Of a DNA stretch of 64,000 nt, positions 6,499-63,211 are shown in pieces. The DNA lies in IMG/VR virus record IMGVR_UViG_3300014043_000005. One strand, 5' to 3'. Each line of letters opens with the position of its first letter. The stretch's first letter is position 1. The notes under the pieces are model-generated. The model saw only the letters and a list, made by a program, of their open reading frames with translations, ran no database searches and was not told the DNA's origin. The DNA is from an uncultured virus (IMG/VR IMGVR_UViG_3300014043_000005) (Duplodnaviria; Heunggongvirae; Uroviricota; Caudoviricetes). The position numbers and the translations under genes are program-made.

Positions 6499-7656
6499 TT
6501 ATTTGCCATCGTTCACATTCGCTGTTTTCAATTGCATCCATCTGTAAGCATCCAAACCAGCTTTCAAACGCGCTGGATATGATTCCACTGGATTCGCCGG
6601 GCGCACGAAACCGGCAAGGAAATGCCATGATGCCATGCGCACATCCCTGTCGGCATTGAATGCATCCAAACCCGCTTGCCCGTTCGCGCCGACATTACCA
6701 GTGAAATCCAATGGTTCACGCCATGAGTTCACATCATCAATTTCCAGCATCAGATACTCGACTTGCGTGTTTAAATCATCCCATTTCTCCTGTTTGCCAT
6801 CCGCGTAATCCAGATAAGCGATTGCTCGTGAACCAGTCCATTGCAACAGTCCGATTCCATGCGCACCGGTCTGAACCCATGCGCGCACTGCATCATTCGG
6901 ACAATTCTCACTCTCTCCATGCTCATAGACCTTACAGCCATCAGGATTAGTTCCATCAGTGCGTTCCAACGCAGTCGGATTCCCCTTGCTTTCACCATAC
7001 ACGACACCGATGATGGCGGCGGCATGAGTCGCATCCAAACCATGCAGGTTCATCATTATGCTGGCAAATGCCTGCATGTGCTCATCATCCATTGCCGTCG
7101 GTTTCACTATCGTTTTCGTTATGGTTTTCACAATCGGATTCGCATCCCTGTACAAGCCCTCACGGAACCTCCCGATTTTATAGGAAGCGTAACAACCGGC
7201 GATGATGAACACTATTATCATAATGTTGGCAATCACCCGGCGCATTATCCATCCGCATCCATGCTGTTTCCCTGCGTCCAATGATTCCATGTCAGCATAA
7301 TCCGTAAATGCGCTCACGCCGGATGATGAATTATCATTCGGCTGAACATTCATACTATGATGATTGTTCACATTGGAATCAATCACATTCATCTCATCAT
7401 GGACTTGATTATGCTTATTGGAACCGGTATGATTCAGATTCATGCGTGCATTGACTGCATCATGCTTATCATTAACCGGTTTGGCGGTATTATCCTGCAT
7501 TCCAGTATTATCATGCTCATTGGATGCATTGTCATGTTGTTCATTGGATGCATTGCGCGTCTTTAAAACCGGTATGACTGGAATGGCGGCATTATGTGAT
7601 TGCGATACCTGATTATCATCTACATCAATAAGGAACGGGTTATCATCAATTCTCAT
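6499..7656 (-). CDS. Membrane-anchored phage-tail-lysozyme-like (Phage_lysozyme2) peptidoglycan hydrolase
   Basis: Asn-rich N-terminus, one TM helix, then AAAIIG..ES.GNP, GIGLLQWTGSR, QVEYL and F.RPA motifs. Confidence 0.75.
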   Translation of the reverse strand: MRIDDNPFLIDVDDNQVSQSHNAAIPVIPVLKTRNASNEQHDNASNEHDNTGMQDNTAKPVNDKHDAVNARMNLNHTGSNKHNQVHDEMNVIDSNVNNHHSMNVQPNDNSSSGVSAFTDYADMESLDAGKQHGCGWIMRRVIANIMIIVFIIAGCYASYKIGRFREGLYRDANPIVKTITKTIVKPTAMDDEHMQAFASIMMNLHGLDATHAAAIIGVVYGESKGNPTALERTDGTNPDGCKVYEHGESENCPNDAVRAWVQTGAHGIGLLQWTGSRAIAYLDYADGKQEKWDDLNTQVEYLMLEIDDVNSWREPLDFTGNVGANGQAGLDAFNADRDVRMASWHFLAGFVRPANPVESYPARLKAGLDAYRWMQLKTANVNDGK

Positions 7657-10420: not shown

Positions 10421-11041
10421 ATGAGAATGCTGCGGAAACTGTATGTTCAAGCACGATTGGACATTGATGATGACATGATGGACGCAATGATTGCAAATGA
10501 GCATATTCCCACCGATCATGATGATAATGGAATACTGCGTGTGGACATGGATTCATGCGAACAATATATTAATAAGTATACGAATGAATCAACTGGCTTC
10601 ACTTATCCAACCGGTAATCGTAACAATACCTTTTCGCAAACATCATTGGATGACGCAATTAAAACCTTGCCTGATGATGTTAAGAATGTAATCAATGATT
10701 ACATGGATTCATTCAAACTTGTGCATGACAAGGAATGCAAGGAATTGCGAAAACAAGGTTTGATTCGCGCGAAAACCGGAATTATTTCATCAATGCTGCA
10801 TGTTAAGAACATGACATCAAAAGAAATCATCGCGAATGTTCCGCGCCGCCGCGTCAGAATGGCATCCACTGGAAAGAATGAATGGTTCTATGATTTGGAA
10901 ACAGTCATTAAACGATTGAATGATGGCACTGTTCCCATTGAACGCATTACATTCACGGATAAAGGCAAGGCGTTCCTGAAACATGGCGGGGATGAAAGCA
11001 TTGTTAACATCGTGAATGCACGCAATAATAAAGCATGCTGA
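10421..11041 (+). CDS. Hypothetical protein, possibly DNA-binding
   Basis: 206-aa ORF with RBS GAAAGGA and an upstream GCCACGCCG box. Confidence 0.65.
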   Translation: MRMLRKLYVQARLDIDDDMMDAMIANEHIPTDHDDNGILRVDMDSCEQYINKYTNESTGFTYPTGNRNNTFSQTSLDDAIKTLPDDVKNVINDYMDSFKLVHDKECKELRKQGLIRAKTGIISSMLHVKNMTSKEIIANVPRRRVRMASTGKNEWFYDLETVIKRLNDGTVPIERITFTDKGKAFLKHGGDESIVNIVNARNNKAC

Positions 11042-14646: not shown

Positions 14647-15300
14647 TCAATGTTTATTTCGCTTATTATTCCTATGATTACCATCATGCAGAACGGAACG
14701 ATGTTTCGATCCTGTTTTCGCTTCCAAATCATAAATACGACTGCGTGAATTACGATTCTTACGTTTCAATCGTTTTATTCTCTGTTCCAATTCAATGTTC
14801 TCTGTTTTTAATGATGAATTCATTGCACGCAATTCTGCAAGTTCATGAATCATTGCCTGTTCACGGGATTGTCCATCCGTTTCAGTTTCAAACCGCTCAC
14901 GTTCGGATTCAATGTCAATCATACTGTATTCAATGGGAATAATATGCTCATGTGCAAGCAAATCCAAATAATTCGCAATCAAAAATCGTGAAAATTCATT
15001 GCCTTTATCAGTATCATCCATCATTGAACGCATCATGATTGCAATGTCAGCATATGATAACGGTTTCCAATGTTCATATGATTTCGGCGCATCCGATTTC
15101 TTAACGCCTTTACCATCGGGTGCCAATAGAATATATGCGCGATTCCAGTATGGAGAATATTTGAAATCATTATCCAAATCATTCTCAATATAAGAATAAT
15201 ACCTATCCAGTTGATTATCATGCACGTTTGAGAATACCTTGTTTTCAATGCAAATAAGCATCCTGTTCCTGCGTGATGTAATGAGAATGTCAATGTTATC
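14647..15300 (-). pseudogene. 5'-truncated PD-(D/E)XK nuclease-family protein with C-terminal coiled coil
   Basis: In-frame NIDILI...ICIENK...DNQLDRYY motif. An in-frame TGA lies just upstream of the D motif, so the N-terminus is missing. Confidence 0.6.
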
Positions 15301-15530: not shown

Positions 15531-15747
15531 AACAATACTAATGATTTTCATATGAAAAACACGCTGTTCACACTGATACCATGATCATCATAATAAAATA
15601 CTCTCCGATAGTCCACAAATGTAGACAAATATAAGCATTCCGCTTTTAATAATTATATTTGATTATTGTTCCTGATACATTCCCACAACACTCTGGTAAT
15701 TCTAATAATGCACACATGAACGATTCCATGAATACAGCATTATGGTT

Positions 15748-17253
15748 TCATATGCATTTTATTTTTATTATTCTGTTTATTCTCTTATTCTTATGCTTGC
15801 ATGTTTTCCTATATGATTTCGGACGCTCCTGCATTAATAGTTCCTTATCCCTGCGAACATTGAAATCATTGAAACCATTCTCATGACATAAATCATTAAA
15901 CCATTCCGCGTATGATTTCCATAAACCTGTCCTGTCAGTGCAATCCTGAATGTTCGCCTTGGATGCCAATCCAATGTATACAATTGTCCGCAAATCAATC
16001 ATAATACCATCAGTATGCTGGATGACATTGCGGACATGCCTATGATTATATTTCAATGATTTCACACTCATACGCACATGCAGCATACCATGCTCATCAA
16101 ATTTGTAATCACGTTTCATAAAATGCATGCATCCTGATTGCAATGGGAACATTTTCAACTTATGCGGATTCATAGTCAGTCCAATTCTGTCGGATTCTTT
16201 TATAAGCATTCGTTTGAATGATTCCGCTGATTGTCTATCAGGGCAAATGCAATAACCATCATCCATGTACCTGCCATAATAACCATAGGATGATGCCATA
16301 TGATCGATTTTATTCACGAACCATATCGCCATTGTCTGACTTGTCTGATTTCCCAGCCCTAAATGTTTCTCATCATGAATGAAAATCCTGAGAATATCCA
16401 ATATTTTCTGAATGTTATCCTTGAACGCATTGAATTCATTCTGCTCATCAGGTTGCACGAATGGTTCCATGTCAATCGCATAATGTTCATACATTGATTG
16501 TAATTGTTCAAATACAATCATACTATCAATGCTTCCGAAATAATTATGATAATCAAACACGACAACATGCGGATCAATCCATTTATTATCCTGAATATGA
16601 TTTTTATTCATTCCACGTAATTCATCATTATTCTCATATAGCAGATTAACCTTATCCTGATTACATTGTTTCCATGATTCACCAGCCGCATTATTCTCAT
16701 GATTCACACTATCAGAATCATTATTATTGTTATTCATTTCGTTCATGCATACATTCATGTAATCATTATTCACATTCCGGACATACTGATTGAATGCTTT
16801 CAACATGTCATTCCGCAACCGGTTCCGTGTGAATGATGTCCCTTTACCTGATAATGATGCACCATTATCATAAATGAGAGTATTGGATACAATGGGAACA
16901 AGATTATTATCACACAGTGAACGTTGAACATCCCTATCCCTGAATCTGACTGCACTGATGAGCCGTTCCTTGTCGCGTTCATTCAGAATGAAATGGACTG
17001 GTTCACGTTTCCTATAATCACCGTTCATGATTTCATCATGCAGCATTATCGCATGTGCAAGATTTGTTTTAATGTGTTCAATGACGGATTGTTTCCACCA
17101 TACACCATTCTTACATGTTTTCGCCGCGTCAAACAATGCCTGCGCACCGAACACATTCTCTGGTTCCATGAGTGGTTTCATGCGTTCATACTTACGCCTG
17201 ATGCGGTTCTCCCTGCGTCGCGCCGCTTTCAACGCGCGTTTAGTTGCACTCAT
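15748..17253 (-). CDS. DGR reverse transcriptase
   Basis: ERDKERLI..VRFRDRDVQRSL, YDNGASLSGKGT, FDYHNYFGSID, LGLGNQTSQ (DGR-type SQ motif) and YGRYMDD. A TR/VR pair lies nearby. Confidence 0.93.
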   Translation of the reverse strand: MSATKRALKAARRRENRIRRKYERMKPLMEPENVFGAQALFDAAKTCKNGVWWKQSVIEHIKTNLAHAIMLHDEIMNGDYRKREPVHFILNERDKERLISAVRFRDRDVQRSLCDNNLVPIVSNTLIYDNGASLSGKGTSFTRNRLRNDMLKAFNQYVRNVNNDYMNVCMNEMNNNNNDSDSVNHENNAAGESWKQCNQDKVNLLYENNDELRGMNKNHIQDNKWIDPHVVVFDYHNYFGSIDSMIVFEQLQSMYEHYAIDMEPFVQPDEQNEFNAFKDNIQKILDILRIFIHDEKHLGLGNQTSQTMAIWFVNKIDHMASSYGYYGRYMDDGYCICPDRQSAESFKRMLIKESDRIGLTMNPHKLKMFPLQSGCMHFMKRDYKFDEHGMLHVRMSVKSLKYNHRHVRNVIQHTDGIMIDLRTIVYIGLASKANIQDCTDRTGLWKSYAEWFNDLCHENGFNDFNVRRDKELLMQERPKSYRKTCKHKNKRINRIIKIKCI

Positions 17254-17558
17254 GTGTTCTCCTTGTGTTCATTATGCATTCATTGTGAACATACAATAAT
17301 ATTGTTTGATTATATGTGATGTTAATGCATGACATAAGCATGTTATCATTTGATTTTCATGTGCTCATGTTTAATAAATATTATCTCATGCATTGTATTT
17401 GCGCAAATTATTCATTATGAAAATTTGATGATTATATTATTTCATGCTATCATTTGTATGAAATACGAATAAATAAGCATGTTATCAAGTATTATTATAT
17501 TTGGTTCTTATGTTTATTGTCCGCATGATTACAATGTTTTCAGTTCTGGAGATGATTT

Positions 17559-18620
17559 ATGGCTGTTGTTAAAAGCAAGCGTGGTGAAGCGGCGAGTGAG
17601 TTCGTGAAACAAGCTGATATTGTGTTCGACACGACGAATCGTTTAATCAGAAAACTATATAAGAAAACTGAGAATCATCGCCACATGTGCAACTGGTTCA
17701 TTGATTGCGCATATCGTATCCGTGATGACGCCTTTAAAGCCGATACCATTTACGTAACTGACATGTATGAGGCTAAGGAACGATTGGATTATCTGGATGA
17801 TGCGCGTGGTATTTTAAGCTCAATGCTCGGTTATACGGACAGATGGATGAAGGAAACACCAGCATTGGATATGAAATACATCAATGGGAACAATGATAAA
17901 CTGGATAAGAAGAAAATCATTAACTATGCTGGAACAATAATGAAAGCACTGGGCGCATTCATCAGCGCCGTGAAATCAGCACGAACGCGATTCACGAATT
18001 TACAGAAGAAAACAGAAGATGAAACCATGTTGACATTGGCGAAAGTATTGGCTAACCCGGAACAATATATTCAGGATTATGAGGGTGCGCATAAAAGAAA
18101 GGACAAACAGAAACCAGTGAAACCAATACTGACATCCAATGAAGTCAAACATATCATTGATAATGTATTCAATGCGAACATTATTCCATTGCATGAGAAC
18201 AGCATTCCTGATAAACCTGCGGTTCCTGCATCACCGGATAATAATATTGATAATAATATTCATGTTTATAATGCGGATAATAATATGACTGTGAGCAATG
18301 AGCATCATAACATCGTAAATAATGACAATGCTCATAATGCAAACATGACTTATAATGAGCATGAATCAGTAGTGGACATTGTTAATCATTATCATAATAT
18401 TATCGGCAGGACTGATGACATTGATATGCGGAATGTTCACATGAATTCAAATGATAAGCATTCAGTCAATCCATGGGAACATGTTGCATGCGAGAATGAA
18501 TCCAATGAACACAATCATGCTCCTGATGACGATGATTCGGTTCCTGTTTCATTCTGGGATGAGCTGTTCGGTTCGGATGATGTTCTCATGGATTCGAATG
18601 ATAATCATACATCAGAATAA
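17559..18620 (+). CDS. Avd-like DGR accessory protein with long Asn/His/Asp-rich C-terminal extension
   Basis: MAVVKSKR.E...EF start and A..IY....E..ER helical pattern typical of Avd/four-helix-bundle DGR accessories. Located upstream of TR on the same strand. Confidence 0.7.
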   Translation: MAVVKSKRGEAASEFVKQADIVFDTTNRLIRKLYKKTENHRHMCNWFIDCAYRIRDDAFKADTIYVTDMYEAKERLDYLDDARGILSSMLGYTDRWMKETPALDMKYINGNNDKLDKKKIINYAGTIMKALGAFISAVKSARTRFTNLQKKTEDETMLTLAKVLANPEQYIQDYEGAHKRKDKQKPVKPILTSNEVKHIIDNVFNANIIPLHENSIPDKPAVPASPDNNIDNNIHVYNADNNMTVSNEHHNIVNNDNAHNANMTYNEHESVVDIVNHYHNIIGRTDDIDMRNVHMNSNDKHSVNPWEHVACENESNEHNHAPDDDDSVPVSFWDELFGSDDVLMDSNDNHTSE

Positions 18621-19128
18621 GCGGATGACATATCAAATAAGCATGTTGAAACCAATGAGAACAAGCTAGATTCAACGAATAACTGAATTCGCCGCGCATG
18701 TCATCATCTCGATTGAGGACACGCAGCTCGTTAATCTGATGAAATCGCCTGCGCCGGTTGAGGACCCGTTGAAACCGGGGCACTACCTGCCGAATGGGAG
18801 GGCTGCTAAACGGGGTTTGAATCGTTTACTCAGTATGTCACGGTTGGGAAGCGTTCCGTGATATGCTTTACTTATAAGGCTGCGGCTGCTGGCCGTGTGC
18901 TTGTGCTTCCCCGTTAGGGGAATGAAACCATCATGTTCACATTGAACGCATCATATGAAGTGAACGCATAATAGTATGTTCTGGCATGTTAATAGTGTGC
19001 CAGAGTTGCATGCATTGGATTCATGTGCTATCATTAATCGTGTGCAGTCAGTTAATACCCGATTGTGCATTTTGATAACTTAATAGTGAGCGGTTGCATC
19101 CGCAAGTGGTGTCGGTTGCTGTGCTGTT

Positions 19129-19255
19129 TTGGCGGTGGGAGCGTTCGTCTTCCCCCCCCCCCAACAACAACAATTTCCTAAATATCAACAATAACGGCGA
19201 TCCCTCTAATAACAATAATGCCAACAATAATAATGGCGTTGTGCCGTGATTCTCC
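19129..19255 (+). ncRNA. DGR template repeat (TR)
   Basis: AAC/AAT-rich. Aligns to the reverse complement of 20830-20950 with substitutions at TR adenines. Confidence 0.95.
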
Positions 19256-20759
19256 AATCATGGAACATTGTGTTAATGCATACATCCAATATGTGATTAA
19301 CCCGTCGCATTCATTCGTTTCAGTGCAGGGGAAACATACATGCAATTTCTGGTTGCATGCATGTCCGCATCATGAATGTGATTCATATTGACGAATGATA
19401 CCATGTGTATTCATGGTATCAGGTCTTTTTAACAAGGAGAAGGGGATGCAATCGGGCAAGCATATCATCATGCTCATGATATGCTTCAAATAAGGGAACT
19501 TTTCACAGTCATAGTCAGAGTGAATGAACGCCTCAACAATAATTGCATGCAATTGCATGCATATGGTTTAAGCAATAATACTCCAGTTGCAGGTAGTTGA
19601 CAAATGCATGGGAATGAACCATTACCGCCGCTTATGATTAAAGCAATGCAATCATAAGATTATTTTGGTTGAAATGATGGAACATGTTGAACCACCATTG
19701 AATCATCATATAATCCAGTATGATGCATCCAATGTGTTCAATAATGGGAAATCATGGTAAGTACATGTTCAACGGTTCATGATGAATGCTTTTCTGACGC
19801 ATTATCGATACGATTCACTGCGGTTCCAGTGAATCGACAATGCTGATGAATATGAGAATTCCTATAATTATGGTTTTAAGCGCGAAAATCATGAAAACTG
19901 GCGAGAAGCGATGATTGAAATACTATCGGAGCAGAGAACCTGATGGATTGATTGACACGGCGGATGGGATGAATAATAAATGGATTCAATGCTGTCATTT
20001 GATTACAGAGCAGAAAATAAAGGTAATCATTGTTAACAATGAATCCACCATCCGCGTTTTTATTCTTTTAACAAATATGTTCAATGATGAAACTTATTAA
20101 ATGGTATTATTAATCGGATTCATTGTTAACATAATGTGAACAGCTATCCAGTTAATCATAAATTGATTATGATTAACAGCATTATGTCTCATGGATCGTT
20201 ATGTGCTCATTTGAATTCATAATATGCATTATAATCATAAATCTTACAAATATGTTTAAAACAATAAAGCTGTTGATTCCAAATAAAATTGATAATATCG
20301 TTAATGATTCGTAATAAATAATAAAAGCATGATTATTTATTATTGGAATCATGCCATTGCCATATGCAAAAGCAAAATATGATAAGCGATGAATAACATA
20401 TTGCAACTGATTGTGAATTTATGCGAATTATTCAAATAACAATATTCCATCGCTTATTACAATAACTATAATAGCACATGATTCACATTCATGCAAAAAT
20501 CCCATTGCTAACATCATGTTAACAATATGAAATCATAATGTGAACAAACTGATTATGACTTCATATAAACTTGGATCATATATGCCACAACCGGTTATTT
20601 TAATGATATGCTTATTGTTGTATTCAAATGATAACAATGTGGACATGGATGGGTCCATAATAATAAATATTGATAATATAGAAAATTTTAAAATAACGAA
20701 AAAGGTTTTCCACCATGCTCATGGTGGAAAACCCGAATGAACACAATTGTTAACAATTG

Positions 20760-20809
20760 TTTGCGGATGCCTACATGCGCGACACAGCACGCATTCCGGC
20801 ATCCGCAAA
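20760..20809 (-). promoter_or_regulatory. Stem-loop just downstream of the VR/IMH (DGR target-recognition hairpin)
   Basis: TTTGCGGATGCC (20760-71) and GGCATCCGCAAA (20798-809) form a perfect 12-bp inverted repeat 14 nt after the target stop codon. Confidence 0.75.
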
Positions 20810-20823
20810 TGTAGCCAAAATTT

Positions 20824-21747
20824 TTAGAAGGAAAAGCACGGCACAACGCCATTAAGATCGTCGGCAAGAAAGTTACCAGAGGGATCGCCGGAATCGTAGA
20901 TAAAGAGGAAAGAGCCGCTGCCGGGGGAAGACGAACGCTCCCACCGCCAACTATAAGATGCTTTAATATGAGAACTATTTAATACCGTATTTGGTGAATA
21001 ATTCCGTGTAACCTTATTTTTAAAGAAATAATATTGAGAACCCTCATATTCTATTGCATTATGCCACCAATATGAAGTTTCAACCAGTTCATTATAACTT
21101 ATAAGCCATAGCTTATCAACAGTTGATGAAACATTAGCTTTTTTATAATAAGAACCTGTTGCAGGACCATTATCTGTTATCTTTATAACAGGTGAAATAT
21201 TTGATTGAAACTCTTGTGGCATCAATGTCCATATATCGCCACTATTCATTTGCTTGCGCAAGTCAGTATCACGCCATCCGCCATTTACATAAGTATGGTT
21301 TGATGAAGTAAACATTGCATGAGCTGGAATCTTACTTGCATCTGTTGCCATAAAAGTCAAACCTGCTTTACCTGTTCCATCTGCTTTATCATCATGGTTC
21401 ATTCCAATAAGACGGAACTCCATAGTCGAGCCATTTGTCATTTTCACGTTTCCGCGTTTATCACCATCACCGTATGAATCAGCTAAATCCATATATCTCT
21501 TGAATTGCGCATAATATTTACTATTTTCACCGTTTGCGCTCATATCATTGGCAATTTGTTTCAACTGTGCAGCATTGTATCCATTGCCATCATTTGGATA
21601 ACATACTGATTCCTGTGAACAGTCATGAGCCTGTATTTCTTCCGCGTGTCCGACATGCATGGTTCCAGCTGCAATCATGCATATAGCCGCCGCTGACGCG
21701 GCTATTGACAGCACGCGATGTTTCCGTTGCGCTTTTGTTAAAATCAT
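20824..21747 (-). CDS. DGR target: secreted DUF6273/C-type-lectin-like protein
   Basis: Sec signal peptide (KAQRKHR-hydrophobic-GHA|EE). FRLIGMNHD, GGWRDTDLR, DKLWLISYNE and WWERS-like...GVVPCF motifs. VR at the C-terminus. Confidence 0.88.
   Translation of the reverse strand: MILTKAQRKHRVLSIAASAAAICMIAAGTMHVGHAEEIQAHDCSQESVCYPNDGNGYNAAQLKQIANDMSANGENSKYYAQFKRYMDLADSYGDGDKRGNVKMTNGSTMEFRLIGMNHDDKADGTGKAGLTFMATDASKIPAHAMFTSSNHTYVNGGWRDTDLRKQMNSGDIWTLMPQEFQSNISPVIKITDNGPATGSYYKKANVSSTVDKLWLISYNELVETSYWWHNAIEYEGSQYYFFKNKVTRNYSPNTVLNSSHIKASYSWRWERSSSPGSGSFLFIYDSGDPSGNFLADDLNGVVPCFSF
20830..20950 (-). repeat. DGR variable repeat (VR)
   Basis: Encodes WRWERSSSPGSGSFLFIYDSGDPSGNFLADDLNGVVPCFS. My manual alignment gives 25 substitutions at TR A positions and 1 C>T near the 3' end. 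Confidence 0.95.
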
Positions 21748-21901
21748 AATCCAATCCTTCCAATGTTAACAAGTGTAAGCAAATGGAAATGGAACCAGAT
21801 GAGGTTGGTTTCGGATATGGTGTCATCCGGTTCCATTCGCCAGTGTTTTAATGAATGCAATGCTTATTATTGTTCACATTGCATTCAAGTGTTTTAAATT
21901 A

Positions 21902-24900
21902 TCAATCTTGTTCCTTGTCAATCATTCGGATTCGCCAGATAGTGATTCCAGTGATGACAATGAGTGCAATCAACAGCAGGATGAGTCTGGAGCCAGTCAA
22001 TGGGAAATCAGAAGACCATACTTTATCCAGCACATAACCAGCATCAATATTCGGATGTGATTGATCGGTTTTCACATTCATCCATTGAACCTCAACTGTT
22101 GACTGTGCATAAGTGGACTCATCCTTCTTATCCGTGTGAACATCAGAATCATCCGTTGCATCATGATAAGCATTAGTGTTAGATGAAGCCACGTCGGATT
22201 CAGTGAATGAATAGGATGGAATCTCACTGAACATCACACGATACTTCAATGATGAACATGCATTCATGGTTCCATCCGAATCAATTTCGCCGCATTTCGC
22301 TGATGAACCATCCACATTCTGATCGATTGGCAAATCAGTGAACTCATAGGAACCATCAGCGTTTACTTTCTTCTCATCAATCTTATCCTTCAATGAACCA
22401 TCCGTACTCACTGTCCACAGTGAGACAGCTTTGCCGGCGACAACTTTCTGATTATCCGTGTTAGACAGCTCATCAGCCTGCTGGATACCATCCTTATTCG
22501 AGTCTATCCAATAACGACCGGAAATCGTTCCGAATATTGCGCCATGAGCCTGACCTGAGATGAACACGCCGACTTGATCGCATTGATCCTCATTGTGTGC
22601 AATCGTGGATACAGTGTCCGCAGCATCTTTCGCAGAATCCGTTGTCGCACGATACTGATTGAATGGTTTGCCATAAATGTGTTCATTCACTTCACCGAAC
22701 GCATAACCAGCGCGGCAAGTGTAAGTCGCATCATGAACATCCTGTGTTCCATTGCGTGCAATGCCATCAGTGGTTTCACCTTGCGATTTCAGTACGGAAC
22801 CGAATGATTCCGATTCTGCGTTCCAATCACCAGTCGGATGACCTGCGTTCGCAATGTTCCCAGTGTCCGCAGTGGCATCCCAGTCATTCACGGTTTCAGA
22901 AGGGGCAGCGGGTCCATTATTCACAATGTTTCCAGCATGAGTCCGCGCGTTCGGAGTCTTATCAAATGGAGTTTCCGTGCTCGTGAACCATGCCTGATTC
23001 ACGACATATTTAGCAGCGCCAGCCTGATAAGTCTTATCTGCTTTCATAATGGCGGCATTCTTGTTCACAGTGCCTTCAAACACGAACACAAGTTCATTGC
23101 CAGCCGGAATGTCATATGGAATGCTGTATTCACGTTTAGTCAATGCCGTGCCAGCATCTGTTCCTTCCGGTGTGTCAATTGTGATCATGTTAGAAGTGTC
23201 AACATAATCAGAACCATAGATTTTCGCTTTGCCAATGGATTCCGGTGTAAGATTACCAATCTTATATACATTCCATGAGCCATCATCAGCATCAGCCCTA
23301 TGATTCTTATTGATGTTCGCTCCATCCGAGTAAGCGTCATAACCTGCAACCATGACTTCACCTGAATTCATCGAATACAAGGAATGATTGAAACCGAGAG
23401 CAATCAGGTTCGCGTTCTTCGTTATATTGGAACCATCCACAGTCATGGACACAGATGATCGCGGAGATGGTTTTTCATTCTTACCTACATACACCGGATT
23501 ACCATCTGCGTCTTTAACGGTATCTCCATTCTTATCAACCTCATACTGATTACCGTTCTTATATGCTATTCCGATTTTATCAGAATCAGTTCCAGTCGCC
23601 AGATTACCATACAAATCCAATCCCCATGTCCACACGGCTCCATCTGATTTCACAGCGGCTGAGCTCATGTATCCAGCGGACACGGAAACAAAACCGGTGT
23701 TATCTGATGGTTTAGCAGTCTGACCGAAATTAGAATCACCAGCAGTGATAATGCTTCCAGTTGATGTCAATGCAACCACATGATTGAAACCCGCCGCGAC
23801 CTGCGTGAAACCTGAACCGTACACTGATGATAATGATGGCGCGGATGTAGTAGTCGCGCTTGTCGTGTATTTCGCATTACCATCGGAATCAATGGCCGCA
23901 ATGGTTCCACTGAATGCAGACAAGGAACCAGCATAAGTCTTATATTTAGTGCCGGTATCCACTTGTGTCCATGAACCATTTGATTGCGTGATGAACATGT
24001 TTCCATTACTATCAATGATAACAGTGTAATCAGCGCCAGCCGCGACCAGAACAGGTGTTCCAGCACCAGTAACCGTAACCGGTGTCGGAGTCGCATGTGC
24101 AGCCGGAGTCGAATCATGTGAACCATTGCCGAGCTGACCGGAATCATTCAAACCCCATGTATACAACTTATCACCGCAAATAGCCGCTGAATGCATGCTG
24201 CCGGTGTCCGCAGAAGTGCATTTGCCTTCAATGCTGGTTAAAGCATTCGTGGATGGTTTCACAGAGTCGCCATTATCAGATGCTTTACCGACCTGACCAT
24301 ACTTATTGTATCCCCATGAATACAATTTGTCATTCGCAAGGACAAGAGAATGATCGCCATCCGTGAACACTTGCGCGGTGCTTTTCTTCAATGCGCTCAA
24401 ATAGGATTTCACATCCTTAACCTCATTGCTCATCGTATCAACAAGTTTAGTGTTTCCATTATTCGCATGAATGACAGTGTTGCCATTATTCTTCACTGAA
24501 ATCGCATACTGGATTGTACATTTGCTTCCAATGCATGCAGTGTTAGTCACTTGTTTGTTCACGGCGGCGAGCGGATGCGGCGCGTAATAACCATAATCCA
24601 CATTCGGACGGTCGCCTCCAGCGGGAACATTAGCATCAGTTGACCAATCATGCGCCGCCCGCTCGCATTCATCGCCATCAGACGGCTGCTTACCGTTCGT
24701 GCAACCGGAAATGCTGTCATATGAATAAGTGTTCGCAACCTGCCGTTCCGTATTATAATAATCCTGTGATTTATCAATACGAGTCGGAATTGCATGGTTA
24801 ATGATGGAGCCATCTTTACCATCGGTTTTGCCAGCATTGTCCGCACGGGACACAATGGTTACATAATCACCGGAATGAAGTTCAATGAACTTATAACCAC

Positions 24901-27900
24901 CCTTCCATGCTTTCTTAACAATGGAATCAGCGTCAGTTGTATTCATGTAATCATTTTTCCATCCGGTTGAATCATTCTCAACATCATCAGCAGTCCATGT
25001 ATGCATTGTGCGCAATGCTTTAGAATTATGATTATCACCGCAGAATTTATGAGTCATCGTTGATTGCTTGCCGCCAACTGTGATGTCAATGGTTCCATCG
25101 ATAATATCGGACTTATTGCAGAGAACCACTTTCACGTCCGGTATTCTCTGTTCATTGTCATCCATGTATGCATCGTTGGAATCATCCCACCAGAGAGTGC
25201 CGGAGAGAGTGCCTGCGACAACCTTGTTTACATCAGCCCAGGGTTGAGTGTTCTCATAGGTGCCTTTCTTACCATCGGTGCCAGCATTGCAATCAGCGGT
25301 TCCATTGGATTCAAGACAGTTCCGCCCAATCCATGCGACATACTGTTCACCGGAATGATTAGCGTTCTTATACGCTTTCGGGCTGGAATCAGTATCCACA
25401 GGTGTAATGGTTATCGTTCCATTAGCGGCTGCGACAGGCAGTGTTTCCGAACCATCCTTAATCTTATCAAAATGTGATTTAATGAGAATCGCGTTAATGT
25501 TCTTCTTATCATTATCCGATAGAGCATTCCATGATTTCCATGTGTAATCAGCAGGATTATCCGAGTTCTTATTCTCATTACCAACAGCATACATGAATTC
25601 AACATCAGTGCTGTTATTAGTTTTTACTTCCGGTTCAGCTGTCAGTTCCCAGCCGCCAGTGTAATCACTGGAACCCCGATCATACTCATGCCATGAGCAG
25701 TCAATACCAGGCATGTTGTTCTTGTTATCACCGATTCCTTCCGTGTTCACTTCTGTCTTACCATTGGATTCATAAATGCATGTGTTCTTACCGATGTTAG
25801 CGGAACCACCCATGATTTCATCATTCAATGCTGGCATGCGGACAACTGTCTGCACATAATCATTACCAGCATAAGCGGAACCACGAGTGAACACATTGAA
25901 ATTCCAATTCATGGAATCATTCACTTCCACGGTGTTCCCAGCTGTGATCTGACCGCCGCTGTTCTTCTCATCACTGATTGTCATCACATTGCTTTCATTA
26001 GCCGGACCCACATTATTATGGTTGTAAACCGGTTCCGCATTCGCTTTGTTGATGTCATAAGTCAGTTCAGAGGTTGTCGTAATGGAACCAATTGCACGAT
26101 TGGATATATCCGCAGTCCATTTGATTTCAGGGAAATGACCATTACCATCAGCATCCAATGCCGGGACATAACCATCATCCGGAATGTTCAATGTGAATGT
26201 GATACCTTGAACATTTCCTTTATTATCGGTTTTAATGTCCGCAGTCCATTCCTTGGATGCACTGGATGCGTTAATGAGTCCAGTTGACGGGTCAACTTTC
26301 ACTGTGACTGTCGCACGGGTGATTGTCGCGTTTGAATACGCGATGTTCTCATAATACGGTTGAATCGTGTAAGTCGCTTTATCACCGGGTAGTGTAATGC
26401 ATGCATTGGATTCAGCGTTCCCATGAACAGCATCGCAATTATTAATGACTTTATTGCCGAATGATGGACGAGTAGCAGTTAGTTTATTCGTGATTGATGC
26501 TTTCGGATCACCGACTTTATCAACATTATAGCAAACCGATGAACGACCAGACGCACCACTGTTCACGGAACCATCAACAACATCACAGACATTATTCAAT
26601 GAACCATTCGCAGTGCTTGCTATTTCCTTCAAATCAAACTGGAGATAATAATTATCACCAGCCTGATAATCCAAACCATCATGCAATACCACGCGGACAG
26701 CTGTGATTTTATCCCATTCTGATTCAGCAGGAATACCAGTATTCCATTCAGCGGTTTTATCACTGGAGCTGGATACATTAGTGTCGCCAATGCTTCCATT
26801 GCCATCAATGCTTTCATCCTTATTTTCGCCGCCGGTCCAGTTCAAATGGCTTGCCGTCCATTGGAAAGTGTAATCAGATGTGTTCAGTTCGCCATCACCG
26901 TAATCATCCGTATTATCATTGTTTCCGGTGAATGAATACACGCCATTGCGCTTCATGAATACATGGACATTACCACGGAACACCTGTTTTGCATTATCCC
27001 ATGAATCGGACACCGTGAATAATTTCGGAGCTGGATTCTTAGCACTGTTTTGAATACCAGCGCTGACAGTTGCACGAATCATCGTTCCCTGTGAAACATG
27101 ACCGCGATCGGATGAAACAATATTCTTACCTGATAGGAATGTTTTGTGTCCATTTGAACCATTTTCATCGAATGATTTGCTTTCATCATCGAAAATGGTT
27201 TTACCATTCGCATATGGTTGTTCAAGTTTCTTATTGAATACATAGCAATCCGTTGTGTCGCTATTGCACGGTGGAACATAAGTGTGAACCGTATCCGAGC
27301 GGCGGATTATACCACGGGACCAGTCATTGTTCGCATATGGATAACCGCGCATACTTCCAGTGTTCTCACTTTTAGTGCTTGTATCCCTATCAGTGTCCCA
27401 ACCGGGTTCACCGCCATGGCCCTGATTCATCATGACTTTCTCATCGGTTCCAGCAGCGAACACATATTTATCCGGTATGATGCGAATTGGAAGATAAGCA
27501 TTGGAACCATTTGATTTCAATGCAGATAGTTTGGAATCAATGTTTTCATTAACAGAGCATTCTTCCGTATAGGATTCGTCATCCTTTACACCATCCGGTT
27601 TCTTGCATGTGTAACCGATTTCAGATGCTGGAATGCTCCATGTTAATTTCGCTTCACCTGTCATAACATCAGTCGGCGTGTAAGTCAGTATTTTACCGCC
27701 ATTGCCGATTTTAGTGTTTCCAATAGTGAATACAGTGCTTGCAGGCCATGCGGTCGCATCAATTTTAATCGGACGATCCGGCGAAGCCCATGCGCCGGAT
27801 GCGGTTGTTCCCAGTGATGACCATCCTTTGTAAGCAAGTTCATTATCACGCTTAATGTAAAATGAACCAGTATAATCACCATCTGAATATGCATCATCCT

Positions 27901-28708
27901 TAGTATTGCCGTCGCTTAATTCATCATATCTTTCCGAACCATAACGATTATGCGGATCAGCGCCATTATCAAGATATAAATCACTATTCGGAGCTGACAC
28001 AACGGTTATCGGATCGGATGTTGATGTGTATGATGAGCCACCTTTCCTGGAAACCGTCATTTTCACAGAATTATTCGTTTTCACGGTTCCATTTGTATCC
28101 AATGCGGACAGGAACACCTTTTGTTCCACGCTGGTTGATACGCCAGCAGGAACGGAATAGGTGCAGCCGAGTTCAGGTTTGGACTCATCAACCCATTTAG
28201 CGCTCACCATGTTATTTGATGAGCAGAATGAACCACCGCTGATGAGTTTCAAATATTTTACATCATCCTTGGAATCATTCCATAATGAATCGAATTTAAC
28301 AGTGATTTCACGCTGTTTAGCAGCAGTGAAAGTCAGTTTAACATTATATCGGACTGTATCGCCTGATGCTACAACATTGTCATCAGGCGCGTTATCACCG
28401 GGAGTGAAACCATTCTCCTTCGTTATGAAAGTATGAGAACCCTTCTTAGGAGTCCATTTCTCATCATCATTCTGAATGCCATCATTATTCTTATCACCAT
28501 CCCAGCCTGTGCCATCCATGATTTTGACTATACTGGCATTAGTGTAAGGATTCGGTCTCTCAGTCGCTTCAGCGGAGTGCCCCCCGTCGTGTGTCATCAT
28601 GAATCCAGTGAAACCAGCCGCGCCGATAGTCGCCACAAGCAGACTGATTCCAATGGTTTTTAACCATTTATTATGTGTTTTCATTTGTAATCCAATCCCA
28701 TCAAACAT
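21902..28708 (-). CDS. Giant sortase-anchored surface adhesin (RCC1/BLIP-II-like repeats, SdrD-B/Cna-B-like domains)
   Basis: Signal peptide; WG.N..GQ.G repeats; two SG..W.DSN.D domains; C-terminal FPLTG followed by a TM helix and charged tail. Confidence 0.85.
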   Translation of the reverse strand: MFDGIGLQMKTHNKWLKTIGISLLVATIGAAGFTGFMMTHDGGHSAEATERPNPYTNASIVKIMDGTGWDGDKNNDGIQNDDEKWTPKKGSHTFITKENGFTPGDNAPDDNVVASGDTVRYNVKLTFTAAKQREITVKFDSLWNDSKDDVKYLKLISGGSFCSSNNMVSAKWVDESKPELGCTYSVPAGVSTSVEQKVFLSALDTNGTVKTNNSVKMTVSRKGGSSYTSTSDPITVVSAPNSDLYLDNGADPHNRYGSERYDELSDGNTKDDAYSDGDYTGSFYIKRDNELAYKGWSSLGTTASGAWASPDRPIKIDATAWPASTVFTIGNTKIGNGGKILTYTPTDVMTGEAKLTWSIPASEIGYTCKKPDGVKDDESYTEECSVNENIDSKLSALKSNGSNAYLPIRIIPDKYVFAAGTDEKVMMNQGHGGEPGWDTDRDTSTKSENTGSMRGYPYANNDWSRGIIRRSDTVHTYVPPCNSDTTDCYVFNKKLEQPYANGKTIFDDESKSFDENGSNGHKTFLSGKNIVSSDRGHVSQGTMIRATVSAGIQNSAKNPAPKLFTVSDSWDNAKQVFRGNVHVFMKRNGVYSFTGNNDNTDDYGDGELNTSDYTFQWTASHLNWTGGENKDESIDGNGSIGDTNVSSSSDKTAEWNTGIPAESEWDKITAVRVVLHDGLDYQAGDNYYLQFDLKEIASTANGSLNNVCDVVDGSVNSGASGRSSVCYNVDKVGDPKASITNKLTATRPSFGNKVINNCDAVHGNAESNACITLPGDKATYTIQPYYENIAYSNATITRATVTVKVDPSTGLINASSASKEWTADIKTDNKGNVQGITFTLNIPDDGYVPALDADGNGHFPEIKWTADISNRAIGSITTTSELTYDINKANAEPVYNHNNVGPANESNVMTISDEKNSGGQITAGNTVEVNDSMNWNFNVFTRGSAYAGNDYVQTVVRMPALNDEIMGGSANIGKNTCIYESNGKTEVNTEGIGDNKNNMPGIDCSWHEYDRGSSDYTGGWELTAEPEVKTNNSTDVEFMYAVGNENKNSDNPADYTWKSWNALSDNDKKNINAILIKSHFDKIKDGSETLPVAAANGTITITPVDTDSSPKAYKNANHSGEQYVAWIGRNCLESNGTADCNAGTDGKKGTYENTQPWADVNKVVAGTLSGTLWWDDSNDAYMDDNEQRIPDVKVVLCNKSDIIDGTIDITVGGKQSTMTHKFCGDNHNSKALRTMHTWTADDVENDSTGWKNDYMNTTDADSIVKKAWKGGYKFIELHSGDYVTIVSRADNAGKTDGKDGSIINHAIPTRIDKSQDYYNTERQVANTYSYDSISGCTNGKQPSDGDECERAAHDWSTDANVPAGGDRPNVDYGYYAPHPLAAVNKQVTNTACIGSKCTIQYAISVKNNGNTVIHANNGNTKLVDTMSNEVKDVKSYLSALKKSTAQVFTDGDHSLVLANDKLYSWGYNKYGQVGKASDNGDSVKPSTNALTSIEGKCTSADTGSMHSAAICGDKLYTWGLNDSGQLGNGSHDSTPAAHATPTPVTVTGAGTPVLVAAGADYTVIIDSNGNMFITQSNGSWTQVDTGTKYKTYAGSLSAFSGTIAAIDSDGNAKYTTSATTTSAPSLSSVYGSGFTQVAAGFNHVVALTSTGSIITAGDSNFGQTAKPSDNTGFVSVSAGYMSSAAVKSDGAVWTWGLDLYGNLATGTDSDKIGIAYKNGNQYEVDKNGDTVKDADGNPVYVGKNEKPSPRSSVSMTVDGSNITKNANLIALGFNHSLYSMNSGEVMVAGYDAYSDGANINKNHRADADDGSWNVYKIGNLTPESIGKAKIYGSDYVDTSNMITIDTPEGTDAGTALTKREYSIPYDIPAGNELVFVFEGTVNKNAAIMKADKTYQAGAAKYVVNQAWFTSTETPFDKTPNARTHAGNIVNNGPAAPSETVNDWDATADTGNIANAGHPTGDWNAESESFGSVLKSQGETTDGIARNGTQDVHDATYTCRAGYAFGEVNEHIYGKPFNQYRATTDSAKDAADTVSTIAHNEDQCDQVGVFISGQAHGAIFGTISGRYWIDSNKDGIQQADELSNTDNQKVVAGKAVSLWTVSTDGSLKDKIDEKKVNADGSYEFTDLPIDQNVDGSSAKCGEIDSDGTMNACSSLKYRVMFSEIPSYSFTESDVASSNTNAYHDATDDSDVHTDKKDESTYAQSTVEVQWMNVKTDQSHPNIDAGYVLDKVWSSDFPLTGSRLILLLIALIVITGITIWRIRMIDKEQD

Positions 28709-31959: not shown

Positions 31960-32640
31960 GAGTGGGCACCGTCTCTTCAGGGCAGCGAGGAACCGCACAT
32001 CCACTTCCTCCGTCTCAATGCCATCAATCGAAATATCTGAACTTTCGCGAAATCGAACTTGTATCCTCCGCAAGGATGTGCTATCATGACGGATATGAGT
32101 TCATACAGGCGATACAACTATCGCGCATGCCACACGCAAGGGCAATGCCATGCCTTATCACGCTTGTATGATGCATGCAGATATGCCTACAACTTGGTGA
32201 TCGACCAGCGCGAACTCATGCGCGCCGTCTGGCTAAAAGCCTATTGGATGCGAACTGGACGCGCATCATCGACCGTATCAGGCAGTTCGCCGTCCAATAC
32301 GGCAGGACGGTCAAACTCAACTCATCGACCGGTGGAAGCCAACGAGTCAGACATGCTCCGTATGCAGGCATCGTGATGGCAGGAAATCGTTGAGCGTCCG
32401 CGCATGGGAGTGTCCCGAATGCGGCTCATTCCTTGACCGTGATTGGAATGCCGCTGTGAATATTCTTGACGCCGCAGGGCTTGCGGAGTCGTTAAACGCC
32501 CGTGAAGGCGATGTAAGACGGAGGCTGGCATGTTCCGGCTGCAACGCGAACGCCCGTGAAGCGGGAACCCGCCGAACCCCAAGCCTCCATTAAGGCGACA
32601 GACGTAGGAATCCCCCGCCTGAAGGCGGGGAGGAAGTCAA
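31960..32640 (+). mobile_element. tnpB: Internally deleted, frameshifted tnpB element (IS200/IS605 remnant)
   Basis: Fragments YRRYNYRA...CRYAYN, LAKSLLDANW and WECPECGSFLDRDWNAAVNI in different frames. Right end ...GGGGAGGAAGTCAA. Left boundary approximate. Confidence 0.85.
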
Positions 32641-50667: not shown

Positions 50668-50746
50668 TATCCATAATCCTTTCAAACTTTCATCATGCAT
50701 ATGTTTTCATGCGTTCAATTCCGCTATCAATGATAGCATTGAGCCG

Positions 50747-52117
50747 TCATGCCGCATGCTTCCTGTCCGCTTCCAGCATTGCAGTGAAATCAACATGATT
50801 CGCTTTCTCCGCATGAGGCAGGAAACCTGTATAATGCCATTGTGCGGTGTTCGCTTTAACCTGACGTAAAGTATCCAGACCGACACCGGCGATAATAAGG
50901 ATGGTGGTTCCGCCGAATGGCAGTCGTTCGTTCAATTGCAATGTCATGATGAGAACAGTTGGAATCAACGCGACTGCAAGCAGGTAAACGCTGCCGACCG
51001 TATTCAGTTTATTCATGACATAACCGAGATACGCCGCTGTCTTATGACCGGCTGGCACACCCGGAATGAACGCACTGGATTCATTCAATTGCTCAGCTGT
51101 TTCATGCGTATCCAACGCGATTGACGAATAGAAGAACGTGAACCCGATAATCATGAACGAATACAATGCGATATACCAGATGGAAGTGCTGTTCGACAGG
51201 TTCGATTGAATCCATTGCGCCCAATTGGAATCAGGACTGATGAAAACCAGCATGGATGGAATAGCGAGAATGCTCATTGCGAAAATCGGCGGCATGACAC
51301 TGCTCATGTTGATTTTCAATGGAATGTAACTCATGCTTTCACGGGGCGCACTGTCATCCAGAATGCGTTTCGTGTATTGGATTGGAATGCGACGCTGGCA
51401 AAGCTCCACGAAAACAATGAACATGAGAACGATAATGAGGACGCTGATGACAATGCCGAATTTCAACCAGTCGCCATCCGAACCATTCGAACCATAACCG
51501 ATGTCCCAGAGTCGCGGCAGGAAACCGGAGCAGATGCTCATGAAAATGAGAATGCTCATTCCCTGACCGATTCCCTTATCCGTGATGAGTTCCGCCATCC
51601 ACATGATGAAACCACTGCCTCCAATGAGAACAAGCGTCATTATAATAAGATTGAACACGCTGCCATCCGGTATGACCTGACCGCATTTTCCGGCGAACAA
51701 TGAACCACTGCGTGCAGTGAGGACAATGCCAGCTGATTGAATGACGGCGAGTCCAATCGCAAGATAACGAGTGTACTGGTTCAGTTTGGTTTCACCGGGT
51801 TGTCCTTCCCTGTGGAGTTCCTCAAAATGCGGAATGAGAATTTTCAACAATTGGACGATGATGCTGGCGTTAATATAAGGCATGACACCGAGAGCGAACA
51901 CTGACAGTTGCAGCATCGCGCCACCTGAGAACAGGTTAACGAGCCCGATGAAATCCTCGGAACCGCTGATTTTCGTCATGCATTCATTGATTACACTGTA
52001 ATCAACACCGGGTGCCGGAATGAATGAACCGATACGGTAAATGAGAATGAGTCCAATTGTGAACAGTATCCGGTTCCGTATGTCCGGTGTCCTGAATGCG
52101 TTCATTATCGTTCGCAT
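50747..52117 (-). CDS. secY: Preprotein translocase SecY
   Basis: YRIGSFIP.PG, SVFALGVMPYINASIIVQLL, KGIGQGMS and FGGTTILI. Confidence 0.97.
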   Translation of the reverse strand: MRTIMNAFRTPDIRNRILFTIGLILIYRIGSFIPAPGVDYSVINECMTKISGSEDFIGLVNLFSGGAMLQLSVFALGVMPYINASIIVQLLKILIPHFEELHREGQPGETKLNQYTRYLAIGLAVIQSAGIVLTARSGSLFAGKCGQVIPDGSVFNLIIMTLVLIGGSGFIMWMAELITDKGIGQGMSILIFMSICSGFLPRLWDIGYGSNGSDGDWLKFGIVISVLIIVLMFIVFVELCQRRIPIQYTKRILDDSAPRESMSYIPLKINMSSVMPPIFAMSILAIPSMLVFISPDSNWAQWIQSNLSNSTSIWYIALYSFMIIGFTFFYSSIALDTHETAEQLNESSAFIPGVPAGHKTAAYLGYVMNKLNTVGSVYLLAVALIPTVLIMTLQLNERLPFGGTTILIIAGVGLDTLRQVKANTAQWHYTGFLPHAEKANHVDFTAMLEADRKHAA

Positions 52118-63154: not shown

Positions 63155-63211
63155 TCAATGCATGTGATATTTCCACATTGCGTTCAATGAGAACAGGAAA
63201 GCAGGTGGATT

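Follow-up and report, generated by a model that had tools for sequence, protein, structure and literature searches.

The question raised by this locus is whether a stretch of DNA recorded as viral carries a true diversity-generating retroelement (DGR) with its parts on different strands and, if it does, whether the element diversifies its target and how its layout arose. The stretch is the 64,000-nt IMG/VR record IMGVR_UViG_3300014043_000005 (hereafter the window), and the element lies at positions 15748-21747. As detailed below, it is in our judgement very probably a chromosomal DGR of an uncultured low-GC (42%) ruminant-gut bacterium that belongs to an active lineage, randomises a probably secreted C-type-lectin-like protein, and acquired its layout from a canonical cassette by a local inversion of the avd-template module. 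The original prediction, made from the sequence letters, had claimed a complete DGR, and this claim stands: a reverse transcriptase (RT), an accessory gene, a template repeat (TR) and a variable repeat (VR) inside the open reading frame (ORF) of a target were all found. The positions and strands given for the RT and target ORFs were confirmed by the ORF list, and those of TR and VR by an inverted-repeat alignment. The parts, including the two initiation of mutagenic homing sites (IMH in VR, IMH* in TR), are as follows.

15748-17253, minus strand: DGR reverse transcriptase, 501 aa, with LGNQTSQ at residues 300-306 and YMDD at residues 329-332
17559-18620, plus strand: Avd-like gene, 353 aa, a predicted helical bundle of ~165 aa followed by an N/D/H-rich low-complexity tail
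19129-19255, plus strand: TR, with 16 AAY codons and an inverted-repeat match to VR
19235-19248, plus strand: IMH*, GGCGTTGTGCCGTG then ATTCTCC, at the end of TR
20830-20950, minus strand: VR, target codons 266-306 (of 307)
20837-20850, minus strand: IMH, GGCGTTGTGCCGTG then CTTTTCC, at the end of VR
20824-21747, minus strand: target gene, 307 aa, with a signal-peptide-like N-terminus, a DUF6273 domain and VR at the extreme C-terminus

Looking at the repeat pair, the repeat finder aligned 19129-19156 in inverted orientation with 20923-20950 (block I3, 28 nt, 100%) and 19158-19255 with 20830-20927 (block I1, 98 nt, 73%). The two blocks are offset by a 6-nt length difference in a run of C (C11 in TR, C5 in VR) that had been overlooked in the original prediction. 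When this difference was set aside, the alignment comprised 121 nt with 26 substitutions, 25 of them at TR adenines (A>G 10, A>T 9, A>C 6) and one a C>T. Adenines make up 37 of the 121 aligned TR nucleotides, and by our own arithmetic the chance of finding 25 of 26 mismatches on A is ~3e-12. The earlier codon-by-codon list of changes proved exact on realignment, and its totals were recovered. The last two differences (TGA>TGC and the C>T), however, do not result from mutagenesis. These two are a fixed contrast between IMH* and IMH, because Cys304 is invariant in 40 target homologs and because the same A/C and C/T contrast is found in the relatives of 53% GC described below. Both sites consist of the same GC-rich GGCGTTGTGCCGTG followed by different bases. 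A non-identical IMH*, an IMH and a downstream inverted repeat, all features of DGR membership, are present here with a function predicted from sequence.

The pair is specific to this locus. A 25-mer from the 5' end of the repeat occurs in the window only in TR and VR (0 occurrences expected, 100 shuffles) and had 0 matches in the genome, metagenome and viral contig collections. TR and VR lie 1.57 kb apart, and their longest exact match at the 3' end is 18 nt. Within the 64-kb window, neither two motif searches nor a scan with the target gene against both strands, with adenines as wildcards, revealed a further VR or a second TR.

The RT carries the hallmarks of its class. DGR RTs are marked by a [LIVM]GxxxSQ motif (G...SQ) together with YxDD; in the 34 relatives that were aligned, G301, S305, Q306 and Y329-D332 (YMDD) were unchanged in every one (34/34). 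The sole PDB sequence match was 8ub7_A (E 4.5e-10), from the entry entitled 'Diversity-generating retroelement (DGR) ribonucleoprotein reverse transcriptase' (the Bordetella DGR RT), and the match to phrog_1423 'Reverse transcriptase' reached 1.4e-33. The nearest matches in GenBank phages include RTs of Faecalibacterium phages Pioen and Roos and of Roseburia phage Shimadzu; Pioen and Roos are reported as DGR phages (PMC11792537). An N-rich insert of ~65 aa (residues 158-222, window 16588-16782) is absent from the 53%-GC relatives, and tblastn matches split there. A protein search with the RT returned one cluster at 99% identity (74 member sequences) and everything else at or below 47%; in a single-protein search, no close relatives were found in the viral or genome contig collections.

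We then asked whether the VR varies as its template predicts. Searching with the target returned 136 proteins, of which the best 40 (separate hits of 88-100% identity) were aligned. The 16 AAY-templated codons showed 7-13 residue types each, corresponding to 2.46-3.38 bits; the 18 VR codons without A at positions 1-2 had a mean of 0.20 bits, and target residues 35-263 a mean of 0.10 bits. Codons with a single A showed 2-5 types each, mostly as changes of that A predict (I/F/V/L for ATC, D/V/A/G and one Y for GAT, E/G for GAG). Some pairs of homologs, for example P0136/P0145, are alike in the 5' half of VR and different in the 3' half, in agreement with the published account, in which the 3' start is fixed and the 5' boundary depends on homology (PMC5758913).

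Metagenomes bear on the same question. The stretch 15700-21800 is present in 20 of the 24 public runs listed, from 12 studies and labelled as bovine, sheep or unspecified gut metagenome, one of the runs being possibly the source of the window, and we compared the locus in the assembled contigs (not the reads) of four runs, X2, X3, X5 and X10, each from a separate study. Few differences were seen in the 6.1-kb locus across these contigs. In X2 and X3 the TR is free of substitutions; that of X5 carries just two, C>A at 19160 and 19161, which add an AAC codon. The VR core (20851-20922) is replaced in X3 and X5 by 70-73 letters that cannot be aligned, and the X10 assembly breaks at both VR edges. 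One X2 contig (19248/20836) joins the 3' flank of VR to TR-identical sequence over 119 nt, which could be a naive (unmutated) allele or an assembly-graph path through a mixed population. Altogether, VR is hypervariable at the templated codons across the 40 homologs and is replaced between samples, next to a stable TR, and the DGR lineage is active on this between-sample evidence.

Length varies as well. The TR has C5 and four AAY codons in X2 and X3, C5 and five AAY codons in X5, and C11 and four AAY codons in the window; the VR lengths of the homologs match, with Pro followed by 3, 4 or 5 variable residues, and rarer duplications (SSSP-SSSP, WxWER-WxWER) are seen near the 5' junction. The VR of the window has the C5 form, so that the template which last wrote it was itself C5, unless the crossover fell 3' of the tract.

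What is being diversified is a protein with a match to DUF6273 (PF19789, 4.4e-10). An AlphaFold (AF2) model built from 54 sequences (pLDDT 85.2, pTM 0.84) had as its best match by VIA structural comparison the N-terminal domain of 9qa6_A, the T. ramosa IgA peptidase (Z 12.9), a domain described by its depositors as an enlarged C-type-lectin-like core (PMC12237041). Further matches were Lcl (8q4e, Z 6.0), TvpA (2y3c, Z 5.7) and some 40 C-type lectin domains (Z 3.4-4.6); Foldseek gave E values of 2.3e-4 and, for TvpA, 0.04. On this model the target is a stand-alone, enlarged C-type-lectin-like DUF6273 protein and no tail fibre, and VR occupies the 3' end of its ORF, in a fold tolerant of variation, as expected of a DGR. 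The original prediction of a secreted protein other than a phage tail fibre is thus borne out in its second part; the first depends on a putative Sec signal peptide read by eye from an N-terminus with basic residues, a 17-residue hydrophobic stretch and 'GHA', and we regard the protein as probably secreted and probably ligand-binding. Its nearest named relatives are Bifidobacterium proteins, and only one GenBank phage record matched it, weakly (35% identity over 45% of the query).

The accessory gene was more difficult to name. The ORF previously called avd-like stands in its coordinates and plus strand; its extent as an Avd does not, for only the first ~165 of the 353 aa would form a helical bundle, and residues ~170-353 (~185 aa) are an N/D/H-rich tail that is apparently disordered and absent in the 53%-GC relatives. 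A single-sequence AF2 model of low confidence (pLDDT 48.6) has four long helices in residues 14-165. By VIA it aligns to Avd 4dwl_A with Z 9.7 (rmsd 2.6, 107/109 residues), to 8ub7_B with Z 9.8, and to the related four-helix proteins 2rld_A (Z 11.8) and 2gsc; these values lie in a range common to any helix bundle, below the level that discriminates helix bundles. Leads from the Atlas include an 'Avd-like' cluster (TM 0.67, a lead only). Residues 1-164, used as the query of an exhaustive HMMER search, retrieved 15 relatives at E <=1e-3; no Pfam or NCBIfam family was detected in the 14 relatives tested at E up to 0.1, and a profile of the 15 sequences found no Avd in the PDB. In a word-index protein search the gene's own cluster, at 99% identity (20 member sequences), was the only one found, owing to the length window of the search, and no other match exceeded 47%. 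Position is the best argument for the assignment, since 16 of 20 related loci have a homolog of ~150 aa (37-39% identity) between target and TR. We therefore call the gene Avd-like as a probable assignment, by position and probable fold and not by family membership. A prediction of the complex of RT and Avd-like protein gave a median score of 0.27 (mark 0.32), which speaks neither way.

In the window, RT and target lie on the minus strand, avd and TR on the plus strand opposite both, and the target converges on TR; this flipped architecture, as originally described, agrees with the ORFs and with independent assemblies. To see how it compares with its kin, we used the target family to search IMG/VR and obtained 20 related loci of ~53% GC (L001-L020), with identities to the window of 40-47% for the targets, 37-39% for the Avd-like proteins and 37-45% for the RTs. 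In 16 of the 20, target, Avd-like gene and RT are consecutive on one strand. Among the others, L016 has an RT without an avd match, L010, L013 and L019 have neither RT nor avd within the flank, and L019 has two copies of the target. A homolog of the window's 2268-aa RCC1-repeat protein stands directly upstream of the target in 17 of the 20. A TR of ~168 nt lies on the same strand between avd and RT in six of the eight loci tested, and these TR/VR pairs show 16-25 differences at A sites and 3-5 others, gaps included. The order in the relatives is thus the canonical one, with giant surface protein, target, avd, TR and RT co-oriented.

A second search with the RT alignment gave 80 related loci, and in the 68 where a TR/VR pair could be detected there was no flipped TR or VR (0/68): TR is on the RT strand and VR direct in all 68. 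The same script classifies the window as TR-opposite and VR-inverted. Since the relatives are canonical in 16 of 20 loci and in all 68 TR/VR pairs, the window represents a local inversion of the avd-TR-spacer module. The relatives' TR is clearly orthologous to that of the window and has ~45 nt more at its 5' end, with four more AAY codons (AAC AAC AAC AAT just before a TGG..GAGCG framework); by this comparison the TR of the window lacks some 45 nt of homology at its 5' end, and with them three or four AAY codons. A further difference lies between avd and TR, where the relatives have no TnpB fragment and the window has one.

18706-18902, plus strand: TnpB (IS605-family) gene fragment, between avd and TR, multi-copy in metagenomes

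The part 18706-18858 shares 50% identity, over 40 aa, with a TnpB of L014 that Pfam confirms. Kinship with the two full TnpB genes of the window was considered and rejected, as no alignment was obtained; the fragment matches another TnpB lineage. It is also the sole tblastx match to the relatives from the spacer 19256-20823 and the intergenic regions, which have no blastn similarity to them. Insertion sequence (IS) activity as the cause of the inversion and of the 5' loss from TR is plausible and unproven.

The shortened TR bears on a set of codons that vary without a template.

20951-20959, minus strand: codons 264-266, just 5' of VR, with DGR-like variation outside present TR homology

Among the 40 homologs, codon 265 encodes N (14), D (10), Y (10), G (2), H and E, and codon 266 six residue types. 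Because codons 264-266 correspond to extra AAY codons in the relatives' TR, we read them as probably orphaned, that is, formerly templated, with a diversity that predates the truncation of TR. In a linkage test, site 265 was tied to the backbone site 69, unlike the templated codons tested (permutation p 0.001 among many tests), which is suggestive. The alternative is a second TR elsewhere in the genome. Other target loops (residues 92, 142-153, 197-199, 226-229 and 248-252) are also polymorphic without a template, the loop equivalent to 142-153 is variable in the relatives too, and the single-nucleotide polymorphisms (SNPs) of the target outside VR are non-synonymous in 15 of 15 cases among those listed and are not adenine-specific. 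The simplest reading of these upstream loops is ordinary diversifying selection near the binding face.

We also searched the locus for the signals that its expression and homing would need.

17254-17558, no strand assigned: divergent intergenic region between RT and avd, presumed to hold two promoters, with promoter-like consensus matches
19256-19430, plus strand: spacer-like RNA downstream of TR, ending in a terminator-like hairpin (19396-19421) and a T run
20760-20809, minus strand: two-tier GC-rich hairpin, candidate DGR target-site inverted repeat, starting 15 nt after the target stop codon
20703-20734, minus strand: terminator-like hairpin of the target gene, with a 14-bp stem and a T run

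The promoter-like matches (17425-17453 on the plus strand, 17325-17296 on the minus strand) are matches to a consensus only, of which there are 47 in the region and 33.5 expected. The RNA fold of 19090-19440 has a z of -2.07. As DNA, the hairpin 20760-20809 folds with -21.3 kcal/mol (z -4.16), 0 of 200 shuffles being as stable, and a GC-rich hairpin just downstream of the target 3' end is found in five of the eight relatives tested. Rfam returned nothing in 18500-20900 but a chance snoRNA-like match (E 0.25), and window-wide only a weak tRNA-like match that ARAGORN did not confirm.

On the Bordetella model, the element would work as follows. A plus-strand transcript would carry avd, the TnpB remnant, TR and a spacer of ~140 nt and end at the hairpin 19396-19421, and the RT would be translated from a separate, divergently transcribed mRNA, with both promoters in 17254-17558. 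RT, Avd-like protein and RNA would form a complex, priming would take place within the spacer RNA, and TR RNA would be copied into cDNA by RT and Avd-like protein with misincorporation opposite template adenines. The cDNA would then take the place of VR, which lies on the other strand, where the target gene ends, and VR would be recognised through IMH and the two-tier hairpin downstream of it. The outcome would be the randomisation of 16 Asn-templated codons on a C-type-lectin-like, putatively ligand-binding protein. The layout very probably came from a local inversion of the avd-TR module of a canonical target-avd-TR-RT cassette, with IS (TnpB) debris alongside.

Two short words recur around these signals. 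The 10-mer GCATCCGCAA occurs exactly three times in the window, at 19096-19105 (plus), 20761-20770 (minus) and 20799-20808 (plus), the first copy being part of a small hairpin located 24 nt 5' of TR, and the other two belonging one to each arm of the hairpin that follows VR. A motif like ATGTTCACATTGAACGCAT recurs partially at ~17 places of the window (for example 18930-18955, 17271-17292, 15022-15036, 10930-10947 and 63179-63198) and may be a regulatory or promoter-associated word.

Other explanations of the locus have to be weighed against this one. If the RT belonged to another class (group II intron, retron or defence RT), the repeat would be a coincidence. Weak, partial matches of this kind do exist, with 29.1 bits to the group II intron RT model (cutoff 300), 28.6 bits to Drt4 (cutoff 450) and, among the weak and partial PADLOC matches, 45 bits to UG9; these are far under the curated cutoffs where those exist, however, and the best matches are the DGR RT structure and RTs of DGR phages, in agreement with the TR/VR signature and with the orthologous canonical cassettes, so that we give this explanation practically no weight. 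That the C-terminal diversity stems from ordinary mutation, recombination and diversifying selection without retrohoming is extremely improbable. The untemplated polymorphic loops and the listed SNPs outside VR, all non-synonymous, would suit it, but the high variability coincides codon by codon with TR adenines and spares the interleaved codons lacking A, a DGR-type RT and a conserved TR are adjacent, and the relatives repeat the pattern with their own TRs. It is very unlikely, too, that the flipped layout is an assembly artefact of the TR/VR repeat or of the TnpB fragment. The depth of the latter is ~5-12x that of its flanks in four metagenomes, contigs break inside it at 18777-18873 in three of four runs, and the X2 contig noted above joins the VR flank to TR-identical sequence. 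Against this, another X2 contig (8937 nt) holds RT, avd, the repeat and the start of TR in one piece, contigs of X3 (16487 nt) and X5 (13348 nt) run from 18873 through TR and spacer into the opposite-strand target, these runs from separate studies agree with the window, and the exact match by which TR and VR could be confused at the 3' end is only 18 nt long.

A different possibility concerns the window's own copy, which could be disabled or decaying within a lineage active until recently, its VR being the frozen product of an earlier TR allele. We consider this unlikely, and the features that favour it are among the points that weigh against our interpretation. In the C run, the TR has six C more (C11) than the window's own VR or the TRs of X2 and X3 (C5). 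RT residue D94 falls at a column with G in at least 90% of the 34 relatives, and the X3 and X10 alleles also have G. None of the seven RT SNPs between metagenome alleles is synonymous among the differences listed, a partial count because 31 further locus differences are unlisted. The genome, moreover, is rich in IS debris and of low coding density. Because of D94, the listed RT SNPs and the C11 tract, the window's copy may be less active or less fit than its lineage. On the other side, RT, avd and target all have uninterrupted ORFs, with the catalytic motifs in place; the C11 tract is in frame, and if homing were partial, its 5' crossover falling past the C run, the VR tract would stay as it was, as pairs of the P0136/P0145 type, with a common 5' half and a different 3' half, would suggest; and the lack of synonymous SNPs is weak evidence, with P ~0.13 if a quarter are expected to be synonymous (own arithmetic). 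Further points on the same unfavourable side are that the Avd-like protein has no Pfam, NCBIfam or PDB sequence match, including bAvd PF22296 and the four-helix-bundle family PF05635, its identity resting on position and a low-confidence helical model; that the proposed transcripts derive from the Bordetella model; that variation is also seen at codons 264-266 and 268 and in several upstream loops, for which the present TR offers no template; that the evidence of activity comes from contigs and hence compares samples; and that the repeat finder showed no flanking inverted repeats by which the inversion could be explained, only AT-rich 30-nt pairs of 70-73% identity.

The reading of an active chromosomal DGR also takes in the genes around it.

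21902-28708, minus strand: RCC1-repeat surface protein, 2268 aa, ending in FPLTG, a hydrophobic segment and a basic tail; immediate upstream neighbour of the target

Its place next to the target here and in 17 of 20 relatives suggests a functional link with the DGR target, and the lectin-like DUF6273 protein encoded beside it may serve Bifidobacterium-like gut bacteria as a variable adhesin or receptor. The target had been proposed to be element-borne; in the sense of a phage or mobile element this finds no support. Its neighbours are IS debris and the giant protein anchored to the cell wall, and the window ORFs scanned revealed no structural module of a phage. Upstream of the locus lie a Mom-family protein (1269-2060, plus) and a protein with a phage-tail-lysozyme domain (6499-7656, minus). 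A 204-aa ORF adjoining RT (14647-15261, minus) matches only the C-terminal half of the PD-(D/E)XK_4 profile and PADLOC PDC-S26, and has probably been truncated. At 48136-52117 (minus), full-length genes for SecA and SecY stand side by side, a pair that we take to be reminiscent of accessory Sec systems. Further TnpB debris is found at 32229-32491 and 16-108. ORFs of at least 150 aa cover 63% of the window, a low coding density. An alternative genetic code was tried as its cause and rejected: reading TGA as Trp mostly adds spurious overlapping frames and leaves the gene ends where they are, and recoding of TAG is no better. The window therefore looks like part of a genome with much gene decay.

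How does this DGR compare with known ones? The prototype BPP-1 (mtd-avd-TR-brt; PMC5758913) likewise has an RT with G...SQ and YMDD, an accessory gene just 5' of TR whose product is helical (in the window by a low-confidence model), many AAC and AAT codons in TR, VR at the 3' end of a target with a C-type-lectin fold, IMH and IMH*, and a downstream inverted repeat (in the window a candidate). It differs from the window, where avd and TR are opposite both RT and target and TR and VR are 1.57 kb apart, where RT and Avd-like protein have large low-complexity additions, and where the target is not a tail fibre as in BPP-1 but stands alone, with a signal-peptide-like N-terminus, beside a giant cell-wall protein. 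The 53%-GC cassettes, probably Bifidobacterium-like, share with the window the gene set, neighbourhood, TR framework and IMH/IMH* contrast, and differ in being co-oriented, in their longer TR, and in lacking the TnpB fragment, the RT insert and the Avd tail.

TR and RT on different strands, and VRs opposite TR, are already published (PMC3521204, PMC5758913), and a layout of this kind is therefore not new. Schillinger et al. 2012 describe 'inverted' DGRs with RT opposite TR/VR and one DGR with VRs opposite TR, and likewise concluded that separate transcripts are needed (PMC3521204); a 2024 survey lists 'components situated in different strands' among frequent variants (PMC11661182). In the 'inverted' DGRs of Shewanella, Vibrio and Photobacterium (DiGReF group 4, PMC3521204), TR, VR and target lie together opposite RT; the TR of the window lies, with avd, opposite both RT and the nearby VR, which places it outside that type. 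The Pseudogulbenkiania DGR has its VRs opposite TR (DiGReF, PMC3521204). The window thus holds a real and complete DGR, of an active lineage, in a layout that is uncommon but already catalogued as a kind.

As to the target, Faecalibacterium phages (Roos, Pioen, Lelie, CP11) and target2 of nd4/nd12 are described as having targets whose DUF6273 domain adopts a C-type-lectin-like fold and carries VR at its C-terminal end, as in the window (PMC11792537, PMC10743442); these are phage proteins in canonical cassettes. TvpA of Treponema denticola (2y3c) is, like the window's target, a cellular, exported protein (in our case by prediction) with a C-type-lectin/FGE-type fold; the similarity is low (Z 5.7, rmsd 4.8 over 145 residues), and the closest solved fold is that of the T. 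ramosa IgA peptidase domain. The published bifidobacterial DGRs that we encountered are prophage elements that target tails (PMC8705816; bioRxiv 10.64898/2026.02.18.706556), and in the literature we found no description of a chromosomal family with a giant surface protein and a DUF6273 target.

The general understanding of DGRs is left unchanged by this element; its particular value lies in the comparison with canonical orthologs. We tentatively propose, as a possibility that is more doubtful than not, that the avd-TR-spacer module was turned round, and TR shortened at its 5' end, in an IS-associated rearrangement, yet that the cassette kept diversifying, with codons 264-266 left as frozen orphans and with slippage in TR (number of AAC codons, C5 or C11) and duplications at the 5' junction feeding insertions and deletions into VR. 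If this is true, the locus would be a natural experiment showing that the DGR RNA module is self-contained and can act in trans to the RT gene and in either orientation to a VR 1.57 kb away, and the element would make indel diversity besides substitutions. Together with its canonical relatives, the window offers a before-and-after comparison of a template-module inversion and a TR truncation, which would be useful for learning what a DGR needs in cis and for understanding hypervariable codons that have no template.

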